Virus record (IMG/VR): IMGVR_UViG_3300001866_000030
Span: 1-30,003 of that record
Reading direction: 5' to 3' (one strand)
DNA from: a virus
Taxonomy: Duplodnaviria > Caudoviricetes
Length of the DNA stretch: 30,003 bases
A model generated the notes under the pieces. It worked only from the letters and a program-made list of their open reading frames with translations. It was not told the DNA's origin and made no database searches. Shown in pieces: positions 9,739-30,003 of the stretch (positions are counted from its first letter, which is position 1; every line of letters begins with the position of its first letter). Made by a program: the position numbers and the translations under genes.

Positions 9739-9763
9739 GGGCGATAAAGCCCATTTTATAGAC

Positions 9764-9794
9764 AAAAAAAGCGGTATTTTGATACTGCTTTTTT
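9764..9794. terminator. Intrinsic, probably bidirectional, terminator ending the late operon
   Basis: AAAAAAA-GCGGTAT-TTTG-ATACTGC-TTTTTT hairpin flanked by A and T tracts. Confidence 0.8.
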
Positions 9795-9812
9795 ATATAT
9801 GTATATATAGGC

Positions 9813-9849
9813 TTGACAATAATTTTTGGATATGCTAAACTATAATAAA
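9813..9849 (+). promoter_or_regulatory. Strong sigma70-type early promoter
   Basis: TTGACA (9813-9818), 17 nt, TAAACT (9836-9841) with extended TG at 9833; overlapping TATAAT 9841-9846. Confidence 0.8.
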
Positions 9850-9874
9850 GGTTAATAAATAATAAACAACCAAA

Positions 9875-12359: not shown

Positions 12360-13199
12360 ATGACACAACAAAACGGCAATGCGCCAGCCACACAGGCGCA
12401 ACAATTGGCAAGCTTGAAAACAACGCTTGCGAGCCAATACAAAAAGCAGATCGAAAACTATTTTGGAGACGAAAAAAAGGCGCTAAAATTCCTTTCTTCC
12501 GTTGTTTCCAGCGTGCAGAGAAACCCCGCACTTTTGGAGTGCGAACCGACCAGCGTGATCAATTCTTTCATCACAATGGCGGAGTTAAATTTGATGCCGA
12601 GCGATGTGAGCGGTGAGGCGTATGTTATCCCATACAAAGGCGTTGCGCAATTTCAATTGGGCTACCAAGGATTGGTAACGCTTTTTTACCGAGCAGGGGC
12701 AAAATCAATCGTTTCCGAGATTGTTTATAAAAAGGACAAATTCAATTATACCAACGGAACAATTGAACACACGCCCGATGTTTTTGCGGAAGATCGAGGC
12801 GAGGCAATCGGCGCTTATGTGATTGTCGAATTGCAAGCGGGTGGCAAGATTTCCAAGGTGATGAAAAAAAGCGACATTGTGGGAATTGGCAAAAAGTTTT
12901 CCAAGTCTTTCAATTCAAGTTTCACGCCATGGAAAGAGGCAAATGACCCCGAGCTTTGGATGTGGAAAAAGACGGTATTGAAACAGGTTGCCAAACTTGT
13001 GCCGAAAAATGAAACAATATTTAAAGCCGTGGCGGAGGATAACAAGGACAGCAACATTGACGACCGAATGGCGAAAGCCAAAGAAGAAAGCGAGAGTTTA
13101 AAACTTGGTAACTTAATTAAACACAACACAAATGAAAACAATGAAAATCAAACCCAAATTGAGGCTTCCGAAAGTGATCAAGAGCCTAGCGGAGAATAA
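12360..13199 (+). CDS. recT: RecT-family single-strand annealing recombinase
   Basis: NPALLECEPTSV, GEAYVIPY, QFQLGYQGL, IGAY and MWKKTVLK motifs; acidic C-terminal tail. Confidence 0.92.
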   Translation: MTQQNGNAPATQAQQLASLKTTLASQYKKQIENYFGDEKKALKFLSSVVSSVQRNPALLECEPTSVINSFITMAELNLMPSDVSGEAYVIPYKGVAQFQLGYQGLVTLFYRAGAKSIVSEIVYKKDKFNYTNGTIEHTPDVFAEDRGEAIGAYVIVELQAGGKISKVMKKSDIVGIGKKFSKSFNSSFTPWKEANDPELWMWKKTVLKQVAKLVPKNETIFKAVAEDNKDSNIDDRMAKAKEESESLKLGNLIKHNTNENNENQTQIEASESDQEPSGE

Positions 13200-15153
13200 A
13201 AAGATTGAGAATTTCCCTTTAAAACATTATTCTTATTCAACTTTTGTCAAATTTTCGACCAACCCGATAATGTTTAAAATCAATTACATTAACGGGGACA
13301 GGATCGAGACGACGCGCAACATTTCGGGCATTGTGGGGCAGGCGTTTCACACCGCGATGGATGTGTATTATACCAACTTTCAGATTGACGAGACCGACGC
13401 AATTAAAGACGGCTTGGAGGCTGGCATGCAGTTTCTTGATTGTTATGAGGATGGATTTATTGAATTTTCAACGACCGTCCCAAATAAGCAAAAAGCGCAG
13501 GAAATATTTGCCTTTGCTTATAATTCATACATCACAGAAAAAAGGAAAGAAAACGAGGAATTGGTAGCGTGCGAAGCAATGATTGAGACCGATGTTGATG
13601 TGGAGTGGAAAGGGCAGAAATTGCGCTTGCCAGTGCCATTGAAAGGTTATGTGGATAAGATTGTGCGACAGGATGGAAAGTTGAAGATAATCGACTACAA
13701 GACCACACGGGCGTTTTCAGATCCCGACAAAATCGACGGGGCGAAAATCTTGCAAGCCGTGCAATATTATTTGATGGTTTTTGCCGAATACGGTGAAGAA
13801 CCCGCATCAATGATTTTCGAGGAAGTCAAGACCACAAAAAACAGAAACGGGGACGCACAAGTGAAAAAATACGAAATAGTTTTTGCCGACAATGATCAAT
13901 TCTTTGATTTCTATTTTCGGCTTTATGAGGATATGACCCGCGCCATTAACGGCGAGATGGTTTTTGTCCCGAACATCCAAACCATCTTTGACAATGAGGT
14001 GGCTATTGTTGCATATATCCACAAGCTGGATGTGAGCGAGGAAGCCAGCCGACTGATGAAAGAGTTGCGGGTGGACAATATAACAGACCTTTTGAAAAAG
14101 AAAATCACAACCGCCAGCAACATGCGAAAGTTGATGAACAATGCCGAGAAAAAATTTGTAAGCGCTAAAAATTTAAATTATAACAAAATGACAACACAAG
14201 AAAAAATCCAAACAAAATTGATGGAGCATGGCATGCTTATTCAGTTTGAGGATATGATTGAGGGCTTTGCCGTTGATTTATACCGTTTCAATCCGTCAAT
14301 CGGGCTTAAAATGAGCAAATTATTAAGCTATGTTGCGGATGTGGAGCAGGTGGTGGGAGTGAGTGGCGTGCGCGTCCTTGCCCCTATTCCGAACACTTCC
14401 TTGGTGGGTTTTGAAGTGCCGAGACAAGACCGCAAATTTCCCGAGAAAGCACCAGCGCCCAAAGGTTTTGAGTTGGCAATCGGAGTGGATATTTACGGCA
14501 AGGATTTGCTTTTTGACATAAGAAAAGCCCCGCATTTATTGGTAGCGGGAGCGACTGGATCGGGCAAATCGGTTTTCTTAAATTCTATCATTTCCCAGCT
14601 TGCCACGCTTTCCAATGTTGATCTTCATTTATTCGATCCAAAAATGGTTGAGCTTTCACAGTTTCGAGCCAACGCGGTGGAATATTACAGCGACATTGAA
14701 AGCATTTATTTAGCGCTTGACCAACTTGTGGCGGAGATGAATGTGCGCTATGGCAGATTGAGTGAGGCAGGCGTGCGAAATATCGACGAATACGAGGGGC
14801 AGATGAATTATAAATTTGTGGTGATTGATGAGTTTGGAGACTTGACCGTGGGAAATAAAAGCGAGGGAAAATTGAATTTTTCCAAAGAGATTTTGAAAAG
14901 CCTTTTGATCTTGGCACAGAAAGCGAGAGCGTGCGGAATTCACTTGATCATTGCGACCCAAAGACCGTCAATCAACATCATTACTGGCGACATTAAAGCA
15001 AATTTCCCGACCAAAGTTGCTTTCCGTTGCGCAAAGTCAATCGACAGTCAAGTTGTTTTGGGAGAGGCGGGAGCGGAAAAATTACTTGGCAAAGGAGATA
15101 TGATTTTTAGTAGCGACAACGGCGACGAAAGATTGCAAGGCTTCAATGTTTAA
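13132..15153 (+). CDS. Fusion of a PD-(D/E)XK (RecB/AddB-like) nuclease and an FtsK/SpoIIIE ATPase
   Basis: N-half: HYSYS, GQAFH, LKGYVDKI, IIDYKT, LQAVQY. C-half: FtsK alpha domain (APIPNTSLVGFEVP), Walker A PHLLVAGATGSGKS, FDPKMVE, Walker B VVIDEFGDL, KARACGIHLIIATQRPS, LLGKGDM. One uninterrupted frame. Confidence 0.9.
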   Translation: MKTMKIKPKLRLPKVIKSLAENKKIENFPLKHYSYSTFVKFSTNPIMFKINYINGDRIETTRNISGIVGQAFHTAMDVYYTNFQIDETDAIKDGLEAGMQFLDCYEDGFIEFSTTVPNKQKAQEIFAFAYNSYITEKRKENEELVACEAMIETDVDVEWKGQKLRLPVPLKGYVDKIVRQDGKLKIIDYKTTRAFSDPDKIDGAKILQAVQYYLMVFAEYGEEPASMIFEEVKTTKNRNGDAQVKKYEIVFADNDQFFDFYFRLYEDMTRAINGEMVFVPNIQTIFDNEVAIVAYIHKLDVSEEASRLMKELRVDNITDLLKKKITTASNMRKLMNNAEKKFVSAKNLNYNKMTTQEKIQTKLMEHGMLIQFEDMIEGFAVDLYRFNPSIGLKMSKLLSYVADVEQVVGVSGVRVLAPIPNTSLVGFEVPRQDRKFPEKAPAPKGFELAIGVDIYGKDLLFDIRKAPHLLVAGATGSGKSVFLNSIISQLATLSNVDLHLFDPKMVELSQFRANAVEYYSDIESIYLALDQLVAEMNVRYGRLSEAGVRNIDEYEGQMNYKFVVIDEFGDLTVGNKSEGKLNFSKEILKSLLILAQKARACGIHLIIATQRPSINIITGDIKANFPTKVAFRCAKSIDSQVVLGEAGAEKLLGKGDMIFSSDNGDERLQGFNV

Positions 15154-15154
15154 C

Positions 15155-15195
15155 TTATGCACCTTTTGCACAGTTTATACACATACTTATAAACA
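15155..15195 (+). promoter_or_regulatory. Cluster of four tandem DnaA-box-like 9-mers
   Basis: TTATGCACC 15155, TTTTGCACA 15164, TTATACACA 15175 (consensus match), TTATAAACA 15187. Confidence 0.55.
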
Positions 15196-15204
15196 AGTGG
15201 GCTA

Positions 15205-15233
15205 TTGTGAAGTTGAATAAACATTGATAAAAT
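15205..15233 (+). promoter_or_regulatory. Promoter for the replication initiator
   Basis: TTGTGA (15205-15210), 17 nt, TAAAAT (15228-15233) with extended TG. Confidence 0.55.
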
Positions 15234-15299
15234 AAAAAAGTATTAAAAATAAAACATAACGATTATGCAAAACACAAAAAAGAAAGGAGGGGTGTTGAT

Positions 15300-16100
15300 A
15301 TGATAAAAGGCGGATATTATATCAAAGCGCGTTGCATCCAAGAAAGTGGCATTGCTTTAGCGCCCCCGCATGTAAGGGAAATTTGGGACTGGATTTTGAA
15401 AGAATGCAATCACACGGAAAAAAGAATTGGCGGGACAGTGATCAAACGCGGGGAGTGTATGCGATCTTATAACGATATAATTGATGGCTTAAAATGGCGG
15501 ATTGGCTACCGTGAGGAACGCTACACAAAGAGCCAATGCGAGATTGCAATGAAAGTGCTGAAGAAAGCCACAATGATAACCACAACGAAAACCACACGCG
15601 GAATGATAATAAAGGTGCTTAATTACGACAAATTTCAAGACCCTAGAAACTACGAGAGCCACAATGAAACCGAGACGATAACCACAAGAAAGCCACAACA
15701 ACGCCACACTATAAACAAGAATGATAAGAATGTAAAGAATGATAAGAATGAAATTCTTGCAATTTCCCCTAATGGGGAAAATGCGGAAACGGGAAAAGAG
15801 ATTGAAAAAAAACTTGATCCAGTGGGACAGATATTTGATATTTTTTACAAGACGGTAAACCCAGCGCTTAATTGGGGAAACAAAACCAGCCGATCGAGTG
15901 CGGAGTGGTTGATTGCCAAGTTTGGGCTGGCTAACACCAAGCGGATGGTTGAAATGGCGTGCGCCGTCCAAGGTAAGCCGTATGCGCCAGTAGTAACAAC
16001 CCCCTACCAAATGAAGCTTAAATTGGCGGAATTAAAACTTTATTTTGAGAGGGAAAAGCAAAACAATAATTCATCATTTACAGGAAAAAGCTATGAATAA
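15300..16100 (+). CDS. Phage replication initiator / replisome organiser
   Basis: GGYYIKAR...IKRGE..RS...L.W...IIKVLNYDKFQ N-domain and NKNDKNVKNDKN linker of phage initiators; internal iterons; AAAGGAGG RBS. Confidence 0.8.
   Translation: MIKGGYYIKARCIQESGIALAPPHVREIWDWILKECNHTEKRIGGTVIKRGECMRSYNDIIDGLKWRIGYREERYTKSQCEIAMKVLKKATMITTTKTTRGMIIKVLNYDKFQDPRNYESHNETETITTRKPQQRHTINKNDKNVKNDKNEILAISPNGENAETGKEIEKKLDPVGQIFDIFYKTVNPALNWGNKTSRSSAEWLIAKFGLANTKRMVEMACAVQGKPYAPVVTTPYQMKLKLAELKLYFEREKQNNNSSFTGKSYE
15566..15752. repeat. Iteron-like repeats (putative phage origin)
   Basis: About seven (A/G)CCACA units at 15566-15598 and 15657-15709, followed by four AAGAATG units in 15717-15750. Confidence 0.65.
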
Positions 16101-16524
16101 TCAAATCACAACACAACAAAAATGCGTCGTTATGAGAAACGGGATTGAAGTTTGGCTTAGCAAGGAGGGAGCGGAAGAATTTGAGCAACAGTTGCATGCG
16201 GGAGCGAAAGGATTTGTCCCGCTAAAGGGGCGCACAGTCAACACGGTGGACATCTTGGGGGTTTTCTTTCCCAACGACATGGAGGATCTAACCCGTCGAA
16301 AAAATCGCGAATGGAAATGCAAACATGGGACTTGGCACAATACGGGAGAAAAATGCGTTTGCATCCCAGCGGAAGAAAAGGAATATAGCGAGAAAAGGCA
16401 GGCGCTAATCGAGAAATGCGGGAAGTGCAAGAATGGATGGATTTTGGGAGATAACGGCATGAAAGCGTGCGATTGCGTCAAGGATTTTAATATTTACAAC
16501 TTCCGAGACAAAAAATTTGCATAG
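16093..16524 (+). CDS. Hypothetical zinc-binding replication-associated protein
   Basis: ATG 16093 overlaps the initiator stop; WKCKHGTWH...CVC and CGKC.NGW...CDC motifs; no Walker A. Confidence 0.55.
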   Translation: MNNQITTQQKCVVMRNGIEVWLSKEGAEEFEQQLHAGAKGFVPLKGRTVNTVDILGVFFPNDMEDLTRRKNREWKCKHGTWHNTGEKCVCIPAEEKEYSEKRQALIEKCGKCKNGWILGDNGMKACDCVKDFNIYNFRDKKFA

Positions 16525-16553
16525 TATTTTAAATAATGTTAAACTATAATAAA
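16517..16553 (+). promoter_or_regulatory. Sigma70-type promoter, near copy of the 9813 promoter
   Basis: TTGCAT (16517-16522), 17 nt, TAAACT (16540-16545) with extended TG; TAAACTATAATAAA is identical to 9836-9849. Confidence 0.65.
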
Positions 16554-16555
16554 CT

Positions 16556-16780
16556 ATGAAAGAGATTAAAAAACAAGAAAAGGCAAATTTGATTTCCCAT
16601 GCGCTATACGGAAAAGTAAGGCTTGAGCATTACAAAGAGCGCGGGTTTGTCGTTTCGTTTAAGGGAAACAAAGAGGTGTTTTGGCTGGATTGGGACAGAC
16701 TGAAAAAAATCATTGAGAAATTCGATGAACTTGTAAAAATTAAGCAAAATTTGATTAAAAAAAATGGAAAACAAGATTAA
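16556..16780 (+). CDS. Hypothetical protein
   Basis: 74-aa ORF starting just after the promoter, so possibly near-leaderless. Confidence 0.5.
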   Translation: MKEIKKQEKANLISHALYGKVRLEHYKERGFVVSFKGNKEVFWLDWDRLKKIIEKFDELVKIKQNLIKKNGKQD

Positions 16781-16949
16781 AAAAATAATGAATATCGCAC
16801 AGTTTGCCAAGGAGGCGGGAGTGCATCCGCTAACGGTGAGAAATTACCAAAAGCGCGGACTATTACCCGACAAACGCAATCCTTTCAATCGTTATCGGAT
16901 CTTTACTTGGGACGATTTGAAAAAGTTTAAAAAGTTAATCCAAGCGTAA
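16764..16949 (+). CDS. MerR-type winged HTH DNA-binding protein
   Basis: MNIAQFAKEAGVHPLTVRNYQKRGLL...R...RYRIFT..DL is a classic MerR N-terminal domain. Confidence 0.85.
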   Translation: MENKIKKIMNIAQFAKEAGVHPLTVRNYQKRGLLPDKRNPFNRYRIFTWDDLKKFKKLIQA

Positions 16950-17751: not shown

Positions 17752-18158
17752 ATGAAAAATAATAAAGTGCATTTCCTATCATTGAGGCTTGATTGGAAAA
17801 CGCCAAAAGCGGTATATCAAATATTGAACGCAGAATTTAATTTTGATCATGATCCTTGCCCCCCAAAATATGAAGTTGATGGATTAAAGAGCGAGTGGGG
17901 GGGGTTAATTATGTGAACCCGCCTTATGGAAAAGAATTGCCGAAATGGATTGAGAAAGGCTTTGAGGAGTGGCAGAAAGGAAAAACGGTTGTGTTTTTAA
18001 TACCAAGTAGGACAGATACGCGATGGTGGCACGATTATTGCATGAAAGCCACAGAGATAAGATTTATTAAAGGGAGATTAAAATTTGATGATCAACCAAA
18101 TCCAGCACCATTTCCAAGCGCACTAATAATTTTTAAAAACAAAAATGCAAACGATTAA
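17752..18158 (+). CDS. Phage Dam-family DNA N6-adenine methyltransferase, out of frame at a G8 tract
   Basis: From ATG 17752: ...DWKTPK.VY..LNAEFNFDHDPCP...DGLKSEWGG, stop at 17914-17916. The -1 frame continues VNYVNPPYG...WIEK...VFLIPSRTDTRWWH...RFIKGRLKF...APFPS. One extra G gives an intact 135-aa enzyme. Confidence 0.85.
17897..17904 (+). repeat. G8 homopolymer at the frame break of the methyltransferase
   Basis: GAGT-GGGGGGGG-TTAATTATGTGAACCCGCCTTAT. Confidence 0.85.
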
Positions 18159-18268: not shown

Positions 18269-18871
18269 ATGCAAGAAAAAAGAAACGACACATTTAGACG
18301 CTTAAAAGTCAAAGAGGAAAGCGAGACAATTGACCAAAAATCCGAGGAAGTCAAGGAGATCGACAAAAGGATCTTAATGCACATCGTGGAAATGACCTAT
18401 ATGTTGAGCCAAAACAAATTTGCCAACGGGCGGATCGGATATGCGATTGCGCATTGCCAAGTTGTCGAGCATACCCCGTTAAAGTTTTTTGTGATGCAAA
18501 GGAACATCGCGGAGCAATATGAGTTGCCAGCAGTCATTTACAATGCCAAAATTACCGACCAAAATGAGCCGTATGAGGTTTTAGAGCTATGTTTGAGCTT
18601 CCCATACCACAACAGGGCAAAAATTACACGCTACCGCAAAATAGAGGTTGAATATCAGATTGAGGAAAAGGGAAAATTGAGCGCCCCGATCAAAAAATGG
18701 TTTGGAGATTTCATTGCCCAGCTTTTCCAACATGAGATCCAACATTTCGAGGGAGACAATATTTATAATCAATTTTTAAGAGAAAAAGATGATAATAATA
18801 AAACTGCAAAACCAAAGACCGCCAAAAAAACAAAACTTATTGCGAAAAAGGGAGATGCAAAAAATGATTGA
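18269..18871 (+). CDS. def: Peptide deformylase, divergent
   Basis: Motif I GYAIAHCQV (GxGxAAxQ), motif II ELCLSFP (EGCLS), I.RY..IEVEY, motif III AQLFQHEIQHFEG (QHExDHLxG). Confidence 0.8.
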   Translation: MQEKRNDTFRRLKVKEESETIDQKSEEVKEIDKRILMHIVEMTYMLSQNKFANGRIGYAIAHCQVVEHTPLKFFVMQRNIAEQYELPAVIYNAKITDQNEPYEVLELCLSFPYHNRAKITRYRKIEVEYQIEEKGKLSAPIKKWFGDFIAQLFQHEIQHFEGDNIYNQFLREKDDNNKTAKPKTAKKTKLIAKKGDAKND

Positions 18872-18974
18872 GACCTTAGTTGCCAAATATCACAGAGAAT
18901 TTGACGACTTGTTGCCATGGGAGCGTAAATTGTTTTTCAAGGGTTATCAGAAAGCGCAAGATGAACTTGTTTAA
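18864..18974 (+). CDS. Small hypothetical protein (36 aa)
   Basis: ATG 18864 overlaps the def stop; MIETLVAKYHREFDDLLPWERKLFFKGYQKAQDELV. Confidence 0.4.
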   Translation: MIETLVAKYHREFDDLLPWERKLFFKGYQKAQDELV

Positions 18975-18995
18975 ACTTTGAAAAAGTGTTATAGT
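18967..18995 (+). promoter_or_regulatory. Promoter directly upstream of the structured RNA
   Basis: TTGTTT (18967-18972), 17 nt, TATAGT (18990-18995) with extended TG; predicted start near 19002. Confidence 0.55.
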
Positions 18996-18999
18996 GAAA

Positions 19000-19160
19000 T
19001 TGGATTTTGGCAAGTTGAAGTCAAGGCAAGAGAGGAAAGGCGCTTGCGCTGATTACTGATAGCGACAACCTTGAGCCTATTGCACGCGTTGGGTAGCCCC
19101 AGCGTATAGCATGCCCGACGGGAATGTGAGTGATGTGATGGAGACTTGCCAGTTTCCAAA
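19000..19160 (+). ncRNA. Putative structured non-coding RNA or 5' leader (unassigned family)
   Basis: Closing stem 19000-19016/19143-19159 encloses two junction domains: 19021-26/19069-74 with two hairpins, and 19077-84/19134-41 with two hairpins. GC-rich against AT-rich flanks. Confidence 0.6.
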
Positions 19161-19193
19161 TCTTTTAAAAACATAAATAATAATAAAAATTTC

Positions 19194-19433
19194 ATGGAGC
19201 AAGACAAATACACCACAAAAGATTTATATTTGACGACTTTCCTTGTTGCCTTGGGCAGGGAGGTTGAATTGAGACGGGACGGAAACGACAACCGTTTTTC
19301 TTTTGTGTTTGGAAAAGACGAGGAAATTGAGGGCTTAACAGACCAATTTTATCAAAGAAAAGCAACTATTGACCCAATGGGCTTTTGCATTTCAATGAAA
19401 CAGCTTAAAGCAAGAATGTATAATTTTAGATAA
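19194..19433 (+). CDS. DUF5659-like protein
   Basis: YTTKDLYLTTFLVALG...FSFVF...L...FY.....IDP..F....KQLK..MY pattern recognised by eye; ATG 19194 after an A-rich leader. Confidence 0.65.
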   Translation: MEQDKYTTKDLYLTTFLVALGREVELRRDGNDNRFSFVFGKDEEIEGLTDQFYQRKATIDPMGFCISMKQLKARMYNFR

Positions 19434-19434
19434 A

Positions 19435-20223
19435 ATGTATAAATACACTGAAAAAGATATTTTACAATGTGAACTTTGCAAAAAAACGGTTTTAAGAAAA
19501 TCACCCGTGCAGAAATATTGTGAAAAATGCTCTCAAATCAAAGATATTGAAAGAAAAACAAATTGGGCAAAGAAACATGCAAAAAGTGTCGCAAAGACGC
19601 AAAAAAAGCATAGTGGTGAGTTAAGACCCTATTTATTAAAAGCACGCAAAGAAAGATCGGTTAAGGAGACCGCATTGACTTGGACAACGGATGAAAAATT
19701 TAAAAACAATTTTGATCTTCATTTTTCCTTTAAAATTCCTTTTGATCAAAATTTATCAAAAAACGCACTTTGGCGGACTGGAAAATTTGGGCATACTTAT
19801 TTGAGAAAAGAGGCACGAGAGTTAAAAGAGACAATAGGTGAGATCATTAAAAATTCAAAGGTAAAATGGCGAACAAATAAGGTTTATATAAAGATTTTAG
19901 TGCAAAAGCCAGATATGAGAGGCGACGCGATAAATTTTATTGACACAATTTGTGATGGAATAAAGCTTGGATTGCATCTTGACGACAATTGGTTTTCCTT
20001 GGCTGGCGTAGATTGGGAAATTTGCAAGGATAGTCCGCATGTTGCTATTGGGTTATATCAAGAAAATAAAGATGTCATGTATTGCTCAAATTGCGGGTTG
20101 CCACAAGATTTTTCAAATTTTAATAAAAGCAAGCATAACAAATACGGAGTTTATCAACCTTGCAAAAATTGCACAAAATTAGCAAGGGAAATAAGAAACA
20201 AAGAGAAAATTTTATCAATATAG
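19435..20223 (+). CDS. RusA-like Holliday junction resolvase/endonuclease flanked by zinc fingers
   Basis: N-terminal CELC/YCEKC; core IPF...SKN...KPDMRGDAINFIDTICDG....L..DDNWF resembling RusA D-x-x-N / D / DD residues; C-terminal CSNC...CKNC. Confidence 0.6.
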   Translation: MYKYTEKDILQCELCKKTVLRKSPVQKYCEKCSQIKDIERKTNWAKKHAKSVAKTQKKHSGELRPYLLKARKERSVKETALTWTTDEKFKNNFDLHFSFKIPFDQNLSKNALWRTGKFGHTYLRKEARELKETIGEIIKNSKVKWRTNKVYIKILVQKPDMRGDAINFIDTICDGIKLGLHLDDNWFSLAGVDWEICKDSPHVAIGLYQENKDVMYCSNCGLPQDFSNFNKSKHNKYGVYQPCKNCTKLAREIRNKEKILSI

Positions 20224-20306: not shown

Positions 20307-20951
20307 ATGAGACGAGTAAATAACAACCAGCCAAAGATTGATTGGAACAAGGCTTTTATATTTTATTGCACCGCGGACGAGCGAACGGGGAGAATGCCGA
20401 CTTATAAGGATATAAGCGAGAAATTCGGCGTTTCGGAGACAAGGGTTGAGATTATTGGATCAAAATATGATTGGGTTGATAAAAGGGAGAGGTTGGGGAA
20501 AAAGAGCCTTGAGAGGTGGAAAGAAGAAAGGGGCAAGCTGATTGAGAAACTTGAGCAGGCGCAATTTGAGACTTGGAATGGGGCGGTTGAGATTATGCAA
20601 AGACAGCTTAACCAAGTGAAAAGAAAACAATCAGATGCCGAGATGGTGGAGGAACTTTTGGAGGATCTTTTTGATGAGTTGTCAATGGCTAAAAACAAAA
20701 CCGAGCGCAAAGAGATCAAACGCAAGATTTCCAATGTCATGGGGCGCAAGGTTTATGGCAAGGAATTAAGGGAAACCATGGAAGCGCTTAAAACTTCAAT
20801 CAACGGCTTGAGGATCACGCTTGGAATGCCAACCGAGATAACCAAGGGAGAGATGACCAATTTTAACAAGGATGTGTCTATTTCCGAGGAAGATTTGGAA
20901 AAAATGGACAGTGATTTTGAAAAAGCGCATGAAAATAAAACAACTAATTGA
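20307..20951 (+). CDS. terS: Terminase small subunit
   Basis: IDW...Y, TYKDISEKFGVS HTH and W..KR, then helical region; directly upstream of the large terminase. Confidence 0.7.
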   Translation: MRRVNNNQPKIDWNKAFIFYCTADERTGRMPTYKDISEKFGVSETRVEIIGSKYDWVDKRERLGKKSLERWKEERGKLIEKLEQAQFETWNGAVEIMQRQLNQVKRKQSDAEMVEELLEDLFDELSMAKNKTERKEIKRKISNVMGRKVYGKELRETMEALKTSINGLRITLGMPTEITKGEMTNFNKDVSISEEDLEKMDSDFEKAHENKTTN

Positions 20952-22461
20952 AAAATACGGTGAAGAAAAAACCCGACAATATTTGCAACACAGATTTTCG
21001 AGGATAGAGCCAAGCGCTTTTTGGGAATTTGCCCGCACTATTTACGGGGAGAAAATGGAAGATGAAACACCAGATTTCCACAAAGAAATTATACGGATCA
21101 TCATTGAGGATTTCAAAAAAAACGGATATTTTTACATAGGAAGAAATGCTTTTGGAGCGCCACGAGGTGGGGCAAAATCAACGCTTTTGGGAACATTATT
21201 TTTGAGTTGGGTTGCCTTAAACGGATTTTTGCGACATGTTATTTATTGCAGTGATACCTACAAAAAAGCCATTGCGCTTTCCAGTCCTTTGAGAAAACAG
21301 GTTGAAACAAACAAGCGCTTGCAGTTTATTTATCCCGAGGCAAAGAATAGCCAAACTTGGGGTAAAGAGGGATTTGTGATAAATGGACTTAAAGGCGAAT
21401 GTTTAATTGTCCCGATCGGGGCGGGCATGAATGTCCGAGGAGCAAGTGAAGATAACATCCGTCCGCAGTTGGCAATTTTGGACGATATGGAAAACCTTGA
21501 GCTTGTATATTCCAAGGAAAGACGGCAGAAATTGCAGGATTGGCTTGATTTCGACCTTGAGCCAGCCATGGACAGACGGCACAAAAACATTATTTATGTG
21601 GGAACAATCTTGCATTATCACAGCCTTTTGAAGCAAGTTTTGAACCAAGAGGGAAAATATAAGTCATGGAAAACAAGGGTATTTAAGGCTTTGGAGAATG
21701 GAAAGAGTTTTTGGGAAAGCAGATTTAGCGCCGAATATTTAACCGCAATTAAGGATGATCCGACGCATCCCGATTATGTGGGATCAATTGTTTTTGCGCA
21801 GGAATACCAAAATGAACCGCAAGACGACAAAGACCGCATCATCAAGATGGATTGGATAAAAGAATATAATTATAACGAGGCTTGGCGAAAAGTTGAGGGC
21901 ATAAGCGACGACGAAAGGAAAAAGAAATTTAGGGCATCGCTTGAGATTACAGGCGGAGTGGACACGGCGATCAGTGAAAAAGAGGGAGCGGACAATTTCA
22001 GTTTTTACACATACGGATTTGACAAGGTGAGCGCCAAAGAATACATGCTTGATGTTATTCATGGAAAATTTCCCGATATTAACGAGCAAGTCAAGGTGAT
22101 TTGCGACGGCATCCAAAATTGGGGGCATGACACCGTGGGGATCGAAAGCGTGGCATACCAGCAGGGGCTTTATAAGCTTGTTAGGCAGGAATTACAGAGG
22201 CGCAGGATATACAAAACACAAGTCAAACCGATCAAGACCGACAAGGACAAAATACGGCGGGCAAAAATTCATAGTAGTGCGTTTGAGGGTGGATTTATCT
22301 TGTTGCGTGCAGATCATCCAAAATGTGGTATAATCAGATCAGAGATCGAAGAATTCCCGCTTGGAAAACATGACGATGCGTTTGACAGTTTGATGTTGGC
22401 GCGCGAAGCTAGACAAAAACCGAGAGCGAGAGCGTTTGCCGAAAAACCCGAGGGCTTTTAA
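20929..22461 (+). CDS. terL: Terminase large subunit
   Basis: TPDFH, Walker A APRGGAKST, Walker B AILDDME, YVGT, FAQEYQNEP, nuclease GVDTA, IESVAYQ, HDDAFDS. ATG 20929 preferred over GTG 20872. Confidence 0.95.
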   Translation: MKIKQLIEKYGEEKTRQYLQHRFSRIEPSAFWEFARTIYGEKMEDETPDFHKEIIRIIIEDFKKNGYFYIGRNAFGAPRGGAKSTLLGTLFLSWVALNGFLRHVIYCSDTYKKAIALSSPLRKQVETNKRLQFIYPEAKNSQTWGKEGFVINGLKGECLIVPIGAGMNVRGASEDNIRPQLAILDDMENLELVYSKERRQKLQDWLDFDLEPAMDRRHKNIIYVGTILHYHSLLKQVLNQEGKYKSWKTRVFKALENGKSFWESRFSAEYLTAIKDDPTHPDYVGSIVFAQEYQNEPQDDKDRIIKMDWIKEYNYNEAWRKVEGISDDERKKKFRASLEITGGVDTAISEKEGADNFSFYTYGFDKVSAKEYMLDVIHGKFPDINEQVKVICDGIQNWGHDTVGIESVAYQQGLYKLVRQELQRRRIYKTQVKPIKTDKDKIRRAKIHSSAFEGGFILLRADHPKCGIIRSEIEEFPLGKHDDAFDSLMLAREARQKPRARAFAEKPEGF

Positions 22462-25899: not shown

Positions 25900-25915
25900 A
25901 AATAGGCAAAAACAT

Positions 25916-26007
25916 CGGGGGAGTGGTTTTGTGGCTTAACCAAGCCTTTCAACCCTACTCCCCTACTTTCTTTTTGTGTCGCAATTTTCGGCGGGGGAGT
26001 GGTTTTG
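25916..26007. repeat. 16-bp direct repeat pair around a complementary segment; first copy forms a terminator-like stem
   Basis: CGGGGGAGTGGTTTTG at 25916-25931 and 25992-26007; CTACTCCCC at 25955-25963 followed by TACTTTCTTTTTG. Confidence 0.7.
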
Positions 26008-26070
26008 GACATCCATGCGAGAGGGGAGGGGAGGGAATAGCACCACACAATAAACTTTCAAAAAAGCAAG

Positions 26071-26128
26071 TTGACAGAATTGAAAAGTTGGTTGCTATTT
26101 GCATTATTTTATTTTGTGCTATAATAAA
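26071..26128 (+). promoter_or_regulatory. Promoter region for scaffold/capsid genes
   Basis: Extended -10 TGCTATAAT at 26117-26125; a separate TTGACA at 26071 lacks a well-spaced -10. Confidence 0.55.
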
Positions 26129-26197
26129 AATAACAAATTCGTTTTCACGCTTTTCGACATAAAGCGAAAGCATATAAAAATTAAAATCATCAAAACA

Positions 26198-27936: not shown

Positions 27937-27968
27937 AGCCGTATAAACAAATAAAACACAAAAATGCT

Positions 27969-30003
27969 ATGAATATTTATTTAGTAGATCCAAGCGGTAA
28001 GATTGAAAAAATAGAAATAAACAGCCAAAAAGAAGTCCGAGAATGGTTAAAAAAGGGCTACCGAAAGGCTACCCCGAACGAGAGAATTGCGTTTTTAAAA
28101 GAAGAAAAAGAAAAGGTTTTGCAACACATTGCAGATGCGAATTTGCTGGATGTGTTTTTTTTATGTCCGAAAAGCGGGAAAAATGACGGTTACAGCACAT
28201 CAAGCAATTTGCTGGCGCGCGAGTGCGAAAGGCACGGCGTTTTTTTAAATAGAATTTACACGGGGCAAAAGGTGGGGCTTGTTTATAATTACCCGTATGC
28301 TTTGGAGGCTATGCAGTGCGATCACAAAGTGCTTTTCACTATGTTTGAAAGCACCAAGATGCCGAGTGATTGGGACAAATACTTGAAAATGGCGGATGAG
28401 GTGATTGTGCCGAGCAAGTTTTGTCAAAGAGTGATGAAAAGCCAGTTTGGCATTGACGCAAAGATTATCAATTTGGGCTATGACGAGCGAAATTATAAAT
28501 ACATCGAGAGAGTGCGCAATGATAAATTCACCTTTTTGCATTATGATGCCTTTAAATGGCGCAAGGGTTGGGATATTGTTTTGACCGCTTTTGACCAAGA
28601 ATTTGATGAAAAGGACGAGGTGAGGCTTATTTTAAAGAGCGTCAAAAGTGATATTACCCCGCCAGTGAGCGCTTATAATAATGTCGAAAAGATAACCGAG
28701 GCTTTAAGCGGTGAGGATATGATGCGCTTGATGGCACGATCGGATTGCTTTGTTTTTCCGTCCCGCGGTGAGGGCTTTGGATTGACCCCGCTTGAGGCTA
28801 TGGCGACAGGAATGCCAGCGATTGCCCCGAATGCCCACGGAATTGCCGAGTATTGGGATTGGGAGATTATGCCTAACCTTGAAATTATGCCGATTAAGGC
28901 GAGATATGACAGCGAGAGATTTTATGGGATGGATCTTGGGGCAATGTTTCAACCGACAGTCCGAAGCGTGAGAGACGCAATGCGCAAGGAATATTTGCTT
29001 TGGCGCACCAATAAGGATCTTTGGTGGGAAAGGACACAAAGAGCCAGTGAGCATGCCAAGGGTTGGACAGTGCAGAAAACAGGGGAGAAATTGGCACACT
29101 TGCTTTTGAATTCATACAAGCGAGCAAGCGAGGATCGAAGTAAAAAGATTGTGTATTTTTCCGAGGATATAAGACACATTACAGGCGGGCGTTATTATTC
29201 TTGGTGGTTGGCGACGGCTTTGAAAGCCAACGGGTTTGATGTGGAAATTTACACCAACAAAATGCCCGTATTTTTAAACGAATTCAAAAGTTATCCACAG
29301 CCGACGGTTTACCTTGTGGATAACCTTGCCGAGGTGGATGTTAAAGCCATGGCGTATTTTGGCAGTCCCGTAACTGGAAACATGAGAGCTTGCCAGCTTG
29401 CCGAGAAATACGGAAAACAGGCTTATTGTGAGATATTTGACCCGTTTCCGATGATGGCGAAATATCGAGGCAAACACAGTTATCCCGAATGGGAGCGACT
29501 GATCCCCGAACTGAAAAAAGATCATGTCAAAATCTTGGCGCTTTGCAATGAGACGAAAAAATGGGTTTATCCTTGGCTTAATAAGAAAAAAAGCGAAGTT
29601 TTCACGGTTTATCCTTGCATAAATTCCCACGAAAGGGACAACAGCCCCGCAGTTATGGAAAAAAAGAATTGGGCGGTTTTCGTTTCCCGCTTGGATAATC
29701 ACAAGCGCTTGCCCCATGTTTTGGAGGCAGTCAAAGCGACCGATCTTGAGTTGCACATCATTACCAGCGTTGACGGCATTGATTTCCCGTCGCTTTTGAA
29801 AGAGTATGACATGGAGGATCGGGTGAAAATTCATTGGTTTGCCAGCGACAAGGAAAAATTTGAGATTATCAAGCAAAGCAAGGTTATGATCAATGGGGCT
29901 ATTTTTGAGGGATTTGGTATGTGGTTGGCGGAAAGTTTGGCTTGCGGAGTGCCTTGCGTTTGCTACAACTACCCTACTTTTCACGAAATTGCGGGAGAGG
30001 ATA
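27969..30003 (+). CDS. Tandem GT4-GT4 (GT-B fold) glycosyltransferase, truncated by the window end (not in ORF track)
   Basis: Open from ATG 27969 to the end. Module 1: FTMFES, DEVIVPSKF, RKGWD, DCFVFPSRGEGFGLTPLEAMATG (EX7E at 28770-28796). Module 2: TGGRYY, VSRL..HK, FEGFGMWLAESLACGVP (EX7E at 29907-29933). Confidence 0.9.
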   Translation, partial: MNIYLVDPSGKIEKIEINSQKEVREWLKKGYRKATPNERIAFLKEEKEKVLQHIADANLLDVFFLCPKSGKNDGYSTSSNLLARECERHGVFLNRIYTGQKVGLVYNYPYALEAMQCDHKVLFTMFESTKMPSDWDKYLKMADEVIVPSKFCQRVMKSQFGIDAKIINLGYDERNYKYIERVRNDKFTFLHYDAFKWRKGWDIVLTAFDQEFDEKDEVRLILKSVKSDITPPVSAYNNVEKITEALSGEDMMRLMARSDCFVFPSRGEGFGLTPLEAMATGMPAIAPNAHGIAEYWDWEIMPNLEIMPIKARYDSERFYGMDLGAMFQPTVRSVRDAMRKEYLLWRTNKDLWWERTQRASEHAKGWTVQKTGEKLAHLLLNSYKRASEDRSKKIVYFSEDIRHITGGRYYSWWLATALKANGFDVEIYTNKMPVFLNEFKSYPQPTVYLVDNLAEVDVKAMAYFGSPVTGNMRACQLAEKYGKQAYCEIFDPFPMMAKYRGKHSYPEWERLIPELKKDHVKILALCNETKKWVYPWLNKKKSEVFTVYPCINSHERDNSPAVMEKKNWAVFVSRLDNHKRLPHVLEAVKATDLELHIITSVDGIDFPSLLKEYDMEDRVKIHWFASDKEKFEIIKQSKVMINGAIFEGFGMWLAESLACGVPCVCYNYPTFHEIAGED

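Follow-up and report, generated by a model that had tools for sequence, protein, structure and literature searches.

An uncatalogued structured RNA ahead of the DUF5659 gene at the early-to-late boundary of a phage genome

The window, which is the whole stretch of DNA analysed here, is a virus record of 30,003 bases and about 88% completeness. Its gene order starts with tail genes, followed by RecT, a nuclease-FtsK fusion, MerR, Dam and peptide deformylase genes. A structured RNA element lies between the last of these early-type genes and a DUF5659 gene, after which the order continues with RusA-like, terminase, portal, minor capsid, scaffold and coat protein genes. The boundary comprises the following features:

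18967..18995, + strand: predicted sigma70-type promoter TTGTTT-17-TATAGT with a TG-extended -10, recognized from its sequence and its conservation in the homologous locus L126
19000..19159, + strand: structured non-coding RNA of about 160 nt (predicted transcript), with a folding z of -3.24, covariation with L126 and no Rfam family
19194..19433, + strand: DUF5659 gene, 79 aa (PF18903, E 8.5e-7)
19435..20223, + strand: RusA-like resolvase gene (phrog_34, E 1.4e-10)
20307..22461, + strand: probable small terminase gene, so named from its position, and large terminase gene (Terminase_6C, E 3.4e-6 for the large subunit)

Several other parts of the record deserve mention. Straight after RecT, a PD-(D/E)XK nuclease is fused to an FtsK ATPase (13132-15153), and a Dam-family methyltransferase is spread across two overlapping frames of 54 and 87 aa (17752-18158), possibly frameshifted. 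The phage also encodes a peptide deformylase homolog (18269-18871), as does the related locus L131. At 9739-9874, terminator-like hairpins 3' of the lysis genes are followed by TTGACA-17-TAAACT (z -4.9), which is likely an early promoter. Another non-coding gap, 5' of the scaffold gene (25900-26197), holds a G-rich word twice, strong hairpins and a promoter-like TGnTATAAT; its own z is only -1.9, while the equivalent gap of the related record G407 reaches -4.8. Past the coat gene, a long + strand frame (27965-30003) is open at the record end and glycosyltransferase-like by eye; glycosyltransferase- and methyltransferase-like genes also occur in related phages.

A Patescibacteria host is inferred for this phage, since Shine-Dalgarno-like words precede just 4 of the 35 gene starts examined and DUF5659 occurs in 69 of the 401 genomes of a sample of that phylum. 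The window terminase was found in 0 of these 401 genomes at E 1e-30 and, hence, the host assignment stays an inference.

Folding of the predicted RNA was compared with that of shuffled sequences. With a folding energy of -57.2 kcal/mol (z -3.24), the segment 19000-19160 beats all 200 of its shuffles, whereas its minus strand folds less strongly (z -2.31, equalled by 7 of 200 shuffles). A second shuffle comparison of the window RNA gave z -3.51 for the + strand and -3.13 for the minus strand, and the full stretch 18967-19190 gave z -2.76 (2 of 200 shuffles equal). That the structure belongs to a + strand RNA, as initially proposed, is favoured by the CUUG and GCAA tetraloops and by wobble changes.

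No match to a catalogued family was found for the element. At the gathering threshold, Rfam 15 reports 0 families in the window, and at E up to 10 the region 18800-19400 yields two sub-threshold chance matches without any ribozyme, intron or riboswitch among them. Likewise, 0 Rfam matches were obtained in five related loci, including L126, L168 and L170, at E up to 1, and across six larger loci. ARAGORN found 0 tRNA or tmRNA genes in the window and seven related loci. A reverse transcriptase, the gene adjacent to retron msr-msd RNAs, was not seen among the 23 window proteins scanned of this approximately 88% complete record, and the neighbours of the element are DUF5659 and RusA genes.

The initial annotation let the RNA start at its own promoter. 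The corresponding letters are present in the sequence, and 27 of 33 positions of the promoter region (18964-18996) are identical in L126, compared with 10 of 24 just upstream; the -10 of L126 reads TATAAT. A consensus promoter scan of the window omits this promoter, because its -35 matches at 3 of 6 positions only. The transcription start site is a predicted one, and it coincides with the first nucleotide of the closing stem P1.

The secondary structure was examined by comparison with L126, the one clear close homolog behind all covariation counts given here. It was found in a scan with DUF5659 relatives, shows 81% protein identity and is represented by one sequence in three loci (L126, L130 and L131); a further locus, L129, has the very sequence of the window and thus adds no independent comparison. 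The stretches quoted in the initial annotation are all present in the window sequence. Comparison with L126 led to a revised fold, the parts of which are given below together with the flanking leader:

19000..19016, + strand: 5' strand of P1, pairing with 19143-19159 (minimum free energy fold; 8 of 17 letters common to L126)
19024..19035, + strand: 5' strand of P2, made up of outer helix P2a, a 2-nt bulge (19031-32) and an inner AGG (19033-35), based on covariation
19036..19050, + strand: AAA linker and hairpin GGCG-CUUG-CGCU (19039-50), 2 of its 4 hairpin pairs showing two-sided changes in L126
19052..19068, + strand: conserved junction with AUUAC, a 2-bp hairpin (19057-64) and CGACAA, based on identity to L126 and the other lineages
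19069..19078, + strand: 3' strand of P2, which pairs in L126
19079..19134, + strand: domain B, a three-way junction that shares 51 of 56 letters with L126
19079-83 with 19130-34, + strand: P3 of the revised fold, AUUGC/GUGAU
19084-19107, + strand: P4 hairpin with UAGC loop, site of an optional insertion of about 60 nt
19109-19127, + strand: P5 hairpin of domain B with CGACG loop, followed by GAG
19139..19158, + strand: alternative terminator-like hairpin over the 3' strand of P1, listed by a scan and unconserved
19160..19193, + strand: A-rich unstructured leader without Shine-Dalgarno word, judged from its sequence

In this fold, 77 of 80 pair cells of the window and L126 hold and 7 of 40 pairs are changed on both sides, a count biased towards the revised fold as it was drawn from the same two sequences; slid controls reach 28-51% paired. 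The closing stem P1 of the initial annotation is upheld. Its letters drift freely, with 8 of 25 letters of the 3' strand plus 3' linker common to L126, where a closing helix of 9 bp is formed despite the low identity of the 5' strand. P2, in which 19025-30 and 19033-35 pair with 19069-77, shows four two-sided changes, and its pairing is retained although 19072-78 has 1 of 7 letters in common. The junction core, in contrast, is kept in sequence, 32 of 39 letters of 19033-19071 being identical.

The two twin-hairpin domains initially proposed survive in part. Both hairpins of domain B, with loops UAGC and GAC, stand, while domain A and the closing helix of domain B fail on pairing in L126. Overall, 85.5% of cells pair in the earlier fold. 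For its four disputed helices the figure drops to 75-83%, namely 10 of 12 cells in TCAAGG/CCTTGA, 6 of 8 in CAAG/CTTG, 6 of 8 in CGCT/AGCG and 12 of 16 in the domain B closing helix CTATTGCA/TGTGATGG, with all failures located in L126. Nearest-neighbour energies of the window sequence point the other way (-38.9 kcal/mol for the earlier versus -32.1 kcal/mol for the revised fold); both folds were coded by hand, and in both the register of the outer P1 stem was off by one base. By itself, L126 does not fold better than its shuffles (z -0.28 and -1.09).

Close variants were obtained as contigs from public runs at 80% likeness to the window. Three of the runs, taken for RNA data, gave contigs that span the promoter as well and hence do not bear on transcription. 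Among the matches listed, at least eight distinct substitutions fall inside 19000-19159. Judged by hand, those at 19057, 19084, 19085 and 19131 preserve base pairs of the revised fold or add new ones. The substitutions at 19135 and 19136 lie in an unpaired linker; of the long helix drawn there initially, one breaks and the other improves the pairing. In contrast, substitutions at 19151 and 19152 break outer pairs of P1b as well as of the alternative terminator. One run (X3) contains the beginning of an L126-type insertion after 19083, which indicates that the approximately 60-nt P4 insertion seen in L126 is optional.

More distant relatives were sought among nine viral loci from a wider DUF5659 alignment. 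Four of these records carry the terminase family of the window (59-61% identity): G405 and G406 share one sequence (L168 and L169), G407 corresponds to L170 and G408 to L167 and L213. Directly 5' of DUF5659, closed-stem RNAs are found in L168 (321 nt, z -6.6) and L170 (210 nt, z -7.3), so that in these distant phages, too, an RNA precedes the DUF5659, RusA and terminase genes at the same site. Altogether, four of five lineages are carriers, with one copy per record at a constant site and sizes of 161-321 nt reached via peripheral insertions. In all four, P1 joins the predicted first nucleotides to the 3' end; the stem has 21 bp in L168 and 12 in L170. Common to all four are further the outer helix, the 2-nt 5' bulge, the AGG/CYU pairing (its register and the bulge being identical in L168 and L170), AA(A), a tetraloop hairpin and CGnCAA; AUUAC is present in three of the four. 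The CUUG tetraloop of the window is replaced by a GCAA-loop hairpin in L168 and L170. As a second shared feature, each of the four sequences has a UAGC word and then an AGC..GURAG closing helix around GACG, an arrangement that occurs in 1.4-3.6% of shuffles per sequence.

Based on synteny and the post hoc core descriptor, the RNAs of L168 and L170 are very probably homologous to the window RNA. They might instead be unrelated folded elements at the same site, in which case the family would be confined to the clade of the window, and this we regard as unlikely. Such a reading is helped by the two-sequence covariance models R1 and R2, which detect neither L168 nor L170, and by plain alignment scores, which are non-significant (equalled by 52 and by 267 of the 664 background windows). 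It is opposed by the first core descriptor, which, in 1.15 Mb of redundant DNA read on both strands, matches the four syntenic sites only, at an expectation of 4e-5 to 9e-4 per 400-nt gap of simulated DNA, both descriptors being written post hoc after viewing the four sequences. Moreover, 0 of 40 sequence matches in 30 chromosomal loci pass the structure descriptor, and the second feature recurs in all four sequences despite its low shuffle frequency.

Wider scans added no further members. A loose P1 pattern scan gave 121 loci with no homolog by nhmmer, and scans with the core pattern returned the L126 record as the sole true match (1 of 1, 1 of 10 and 1 of 20 stretches), the rest being chance. 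Among INPHARED phages, the three RNAs were unmatched save for two short chance pieces, and DUF5659 was unmatched as well. On the Patescibacteria sample, R1 hit 2 of 150 genomes, both low-complexity false matches, and R2 hit 0 of 150. The core pattern occurred in 95 of 301 Patescibacteria genomes and was discarded, a backward control being about as frequent by eye. A search for junction pseudoknots, made with four sequences only, gave no helix common to all; the candidates CYGA/UUGG, UUAC/GURA and GCUA/UAGC were each dropped as absent from at least one lineage, and kissing of the GACG loop is only a lead.

The fifth lineage offers an empty site. In G408, the upstream gene of G405 and its promoter-like site are followed by the DUF5659 start about 45 nt behind, and the RNA is absent; the core pattern is missing across the whole 19.9-kb record (59% complete). 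Hence, the operon evidently works without the RNA. In the same record (L213), three tail-like genes on the reverse strand (12597-16911) lie between the DUF5659 pair and the RusA/terminase genes.

The initial proposal of a new structured phage RNA behind its own promoter at the early-to-late boundary is supported by covariation, synteny and the Rfam blanks. The element stands for a family of phage RNAs that is uncatalogued, though of a broadly familiar kind, and is present in at least two lineages and probably in four.

The protein encoded next to it gives few hints. Its structure model is confident (pLDDT 93), with no clear match to the fold (Foldseek best E 0.1; best Z 4.6); an Atlas search with DUF5659 returned DUF5659 clusters only, and a literature search on the domain found nothing. 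The family is wide, with 427 clusters at E 0.001. Chromosomal DUF5659 genes (L179-L208) often stand behind short promoter-like gaps in apparently integrated elements and without the RNA. The core descriptor is absent from the 30 chromosomal DUF5659 loci fetched and, among the matches listed, from large-phage DUF5659 loci, which ties the RNA to the promoter site of this phage family and not to DUF5659 generally.

Regarding function, the reading favoured, at somewhat less than an even chance, is a stable stand-alone RNA that would be freed from the late transcript and bind a protein. Transcription would start at the predicted promoter that precedes the DUF5659, RusA and terminase genes, and cutting or trimming at the closure of P1 would then separate the RNA from the rest of the transcript. 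The freed RNA might then act in trans, its conserved A-rich junction binding a protein partner, either a host factor or DUF5659 itself. What is observed is a multi-branch fold that covaries, with junction letters that are unpaired yet conserved and with insertions that may be present or not, and a relative in which the site is empty. A stand-alone RNA is favoured by the pairing of its ends through P1 in four lineages while the P1 letters are free, by size variation through peripheral insertions, as in the raiA subtypes (PMC12968392), by the RNA-less operon of G408 and by the lack of either a conserved terminator or a conserved start-codon pairing. The kept junction letters fit a tertiary fold or a binding surface. 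The main weakness is the release from the mRNA, which needs processing, since no terminator follows P1 in any lineage (+ strands of L126, L168 and L170 scanned). Further points against it are the shuffle-like folding of L126 and the energy preference of the window for the earlier fold, the cost of 8.8 kcal/mol for forcing the core helix in L168 together with the R1/R2 misses and non-significant alignment scores, and the broken outer P1b pairs at 19151 and 19152.

The fixed site directly before DUF5659 in all four carriers fits a role in cis equally well. As a 5' leader of the late operon, the element could modify polymerase, bind DUF5659 or a host protein for read-through, or stabilize the late mRNA; we consider this possible, but less probable than a stand-alone RNA. 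The element always lies between promoter and DUF5659, with the start codon 25-58 nt past P1, it heads the long packaging and head operon, and no Q-like antiterminator is named among the window proteins scanned (23 by Pfam, 11 by PHROGs). G408, which has the same gene without RNA, speaks against a leader, as does a second promoter-like stretch that, in L168, separates the RNA from the gene (seen by eye and absent from the scan list). Moreover, the core descriptor is absent from the 30 chromosomal DUF5659 loci, so that the protein does not depend on the presence of the RNA. Phage lambda has a short RNA at a comparable position, its late region pR'-6S RNA-tR' lying at the early-to-late boundary beside a rusA-type gene; here, in contrast, there is neither a conserved terminator nor a named Q homolog, and the fold is multi-branched and covarying. 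The put RNAs of phage HK022, which bind the zinc-binding domain of the polymerase beta' subunit and suppress termination, are likewise promoter-proximal structured RNAs heading a long phage operon, putL lying just behind its promoter, but they consist of two stem-loops within about 70 nt and lack a closing stem (PMC9378689). The RNAs described here, in contrast, span 160-320 nt with a closing stem and are missing in one relative.

A riboswitch, which had been among the initial options, or an attenuator appears improbable; in such a system, P1 and a terminator hairpin would exclude each other. The window sequence does allow an 8-bp hairpin at 19139-19158, followed by a weak U run and incompatible with P1, and the conserved junction letters could make a ligand pocket. 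This hairpin is not conserved, with 4 of 8 pairs kept in L126 and two pairs broken in close variants, and the + strands of L126, L168 and L170 have no terminator hairpin. In addition, the 21-bp P1 of L168 is too stable for switching, Rfam gives no riboswitch match, and with the start codon well past P1 neither a terminator nor a start-codon switch is conserved.

About as improbable is a ribozyme, or the remnant of a mobile RNA element, inserted behind the promoter. Presence or absence at a single site would suit such an origin, as would the AGG-AAA / CAA-CCU junction, which is reminiscent of group I P4 with J4/5. In contrast to a group I intron, the element sits between genes without interrupting one, occurs in a single copy per record and matches none of the ribozymes or introns of Rfam, even when E values up to 10 are allowed; an R-like word near 19141 is lost in L126. 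Least probable of all is a coding role of the core, for a short peptide or for a tag like that of tmRNA. One frame does read ITDSDNL in both the window and L126, and it gives ITGDNL in L168 and FDANL in L170, but it lacks a start codon in the window and L126, its lengths and ends vary, no conserved tag end exists and ARAGORN finds no tmRNA. Conservation of the junction accounts for the letters in common, and pairing accounts for the changes.

Among catalogued RNAs, raiA provides a parallel to the favoured stand-alone RNA. According to PMC12968392, raiA is a single-copy RNA of about 160-250 nt with a P1 formed from its 5' and 3' ends, as also found in the window RNA, with multi-way junctions and optional peripheral stems, and this closed-stem RNA of similar size acts in trans. 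The two differ in that the UUAGACGUAA linker of raiA is absent from all four phage sequences, that P1 is highly conserved in raiA but free in its letters here (8 of 17 between close homologs) and that raiA is chromosomal, while the window RNA is phage-borne and without Rfam match. For the raiA pseudoknots PK1 and PK2, no counterpart emerged as a junction helix common to the phage sequences, which are few. GOLLD and ROOL (PMC12286853) are likewise structured RNAs without an assigned role; they occur in phages and prophages, and their junctions, too, are A-rich. In contrast to the window RNA, many GOLLD RNAs exceed 800 nt, and both classes occur near tRNA islands, whereas no tRNA genes were found in the window or seven related loci; an Rfam match is again lacking. 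A survey of structured RNAs in IMG/VR phages (PMC10690425) lists candidates upstream of terminase and RusA genes; in the four supplementary files searched, neither DUF5659 nor the record numbers of the homologs are matched. A literature search combining Patescibacteria, phage and structured RNA gave nothing on the element among the matches listed.

More speculatively, and in our view with a low probability, the element may be the founder of a new class of phage RNAs, small but ornate, and the first of them to come from phages of Patescibacteria; its AGG-AAA/CGnCAA centre would then capture polymerase or ribosome or pair with DUF5659 as a late-gene switch.

With its uncatalogued fold, the element joins the short list of orphan phage RNAs. 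The 160-nt copy of the window is the smallest of the four and thus lends itself to easy probing or imaging, and the naturally empty site in a related phage offers a comparison. Should the RNA control late genes or bind a host machine, it would illustrate how gene expression is directed in phages whose hosts have tiny genomes and few Shine-Dalgarno words, and DUF5659 could gain its first function.
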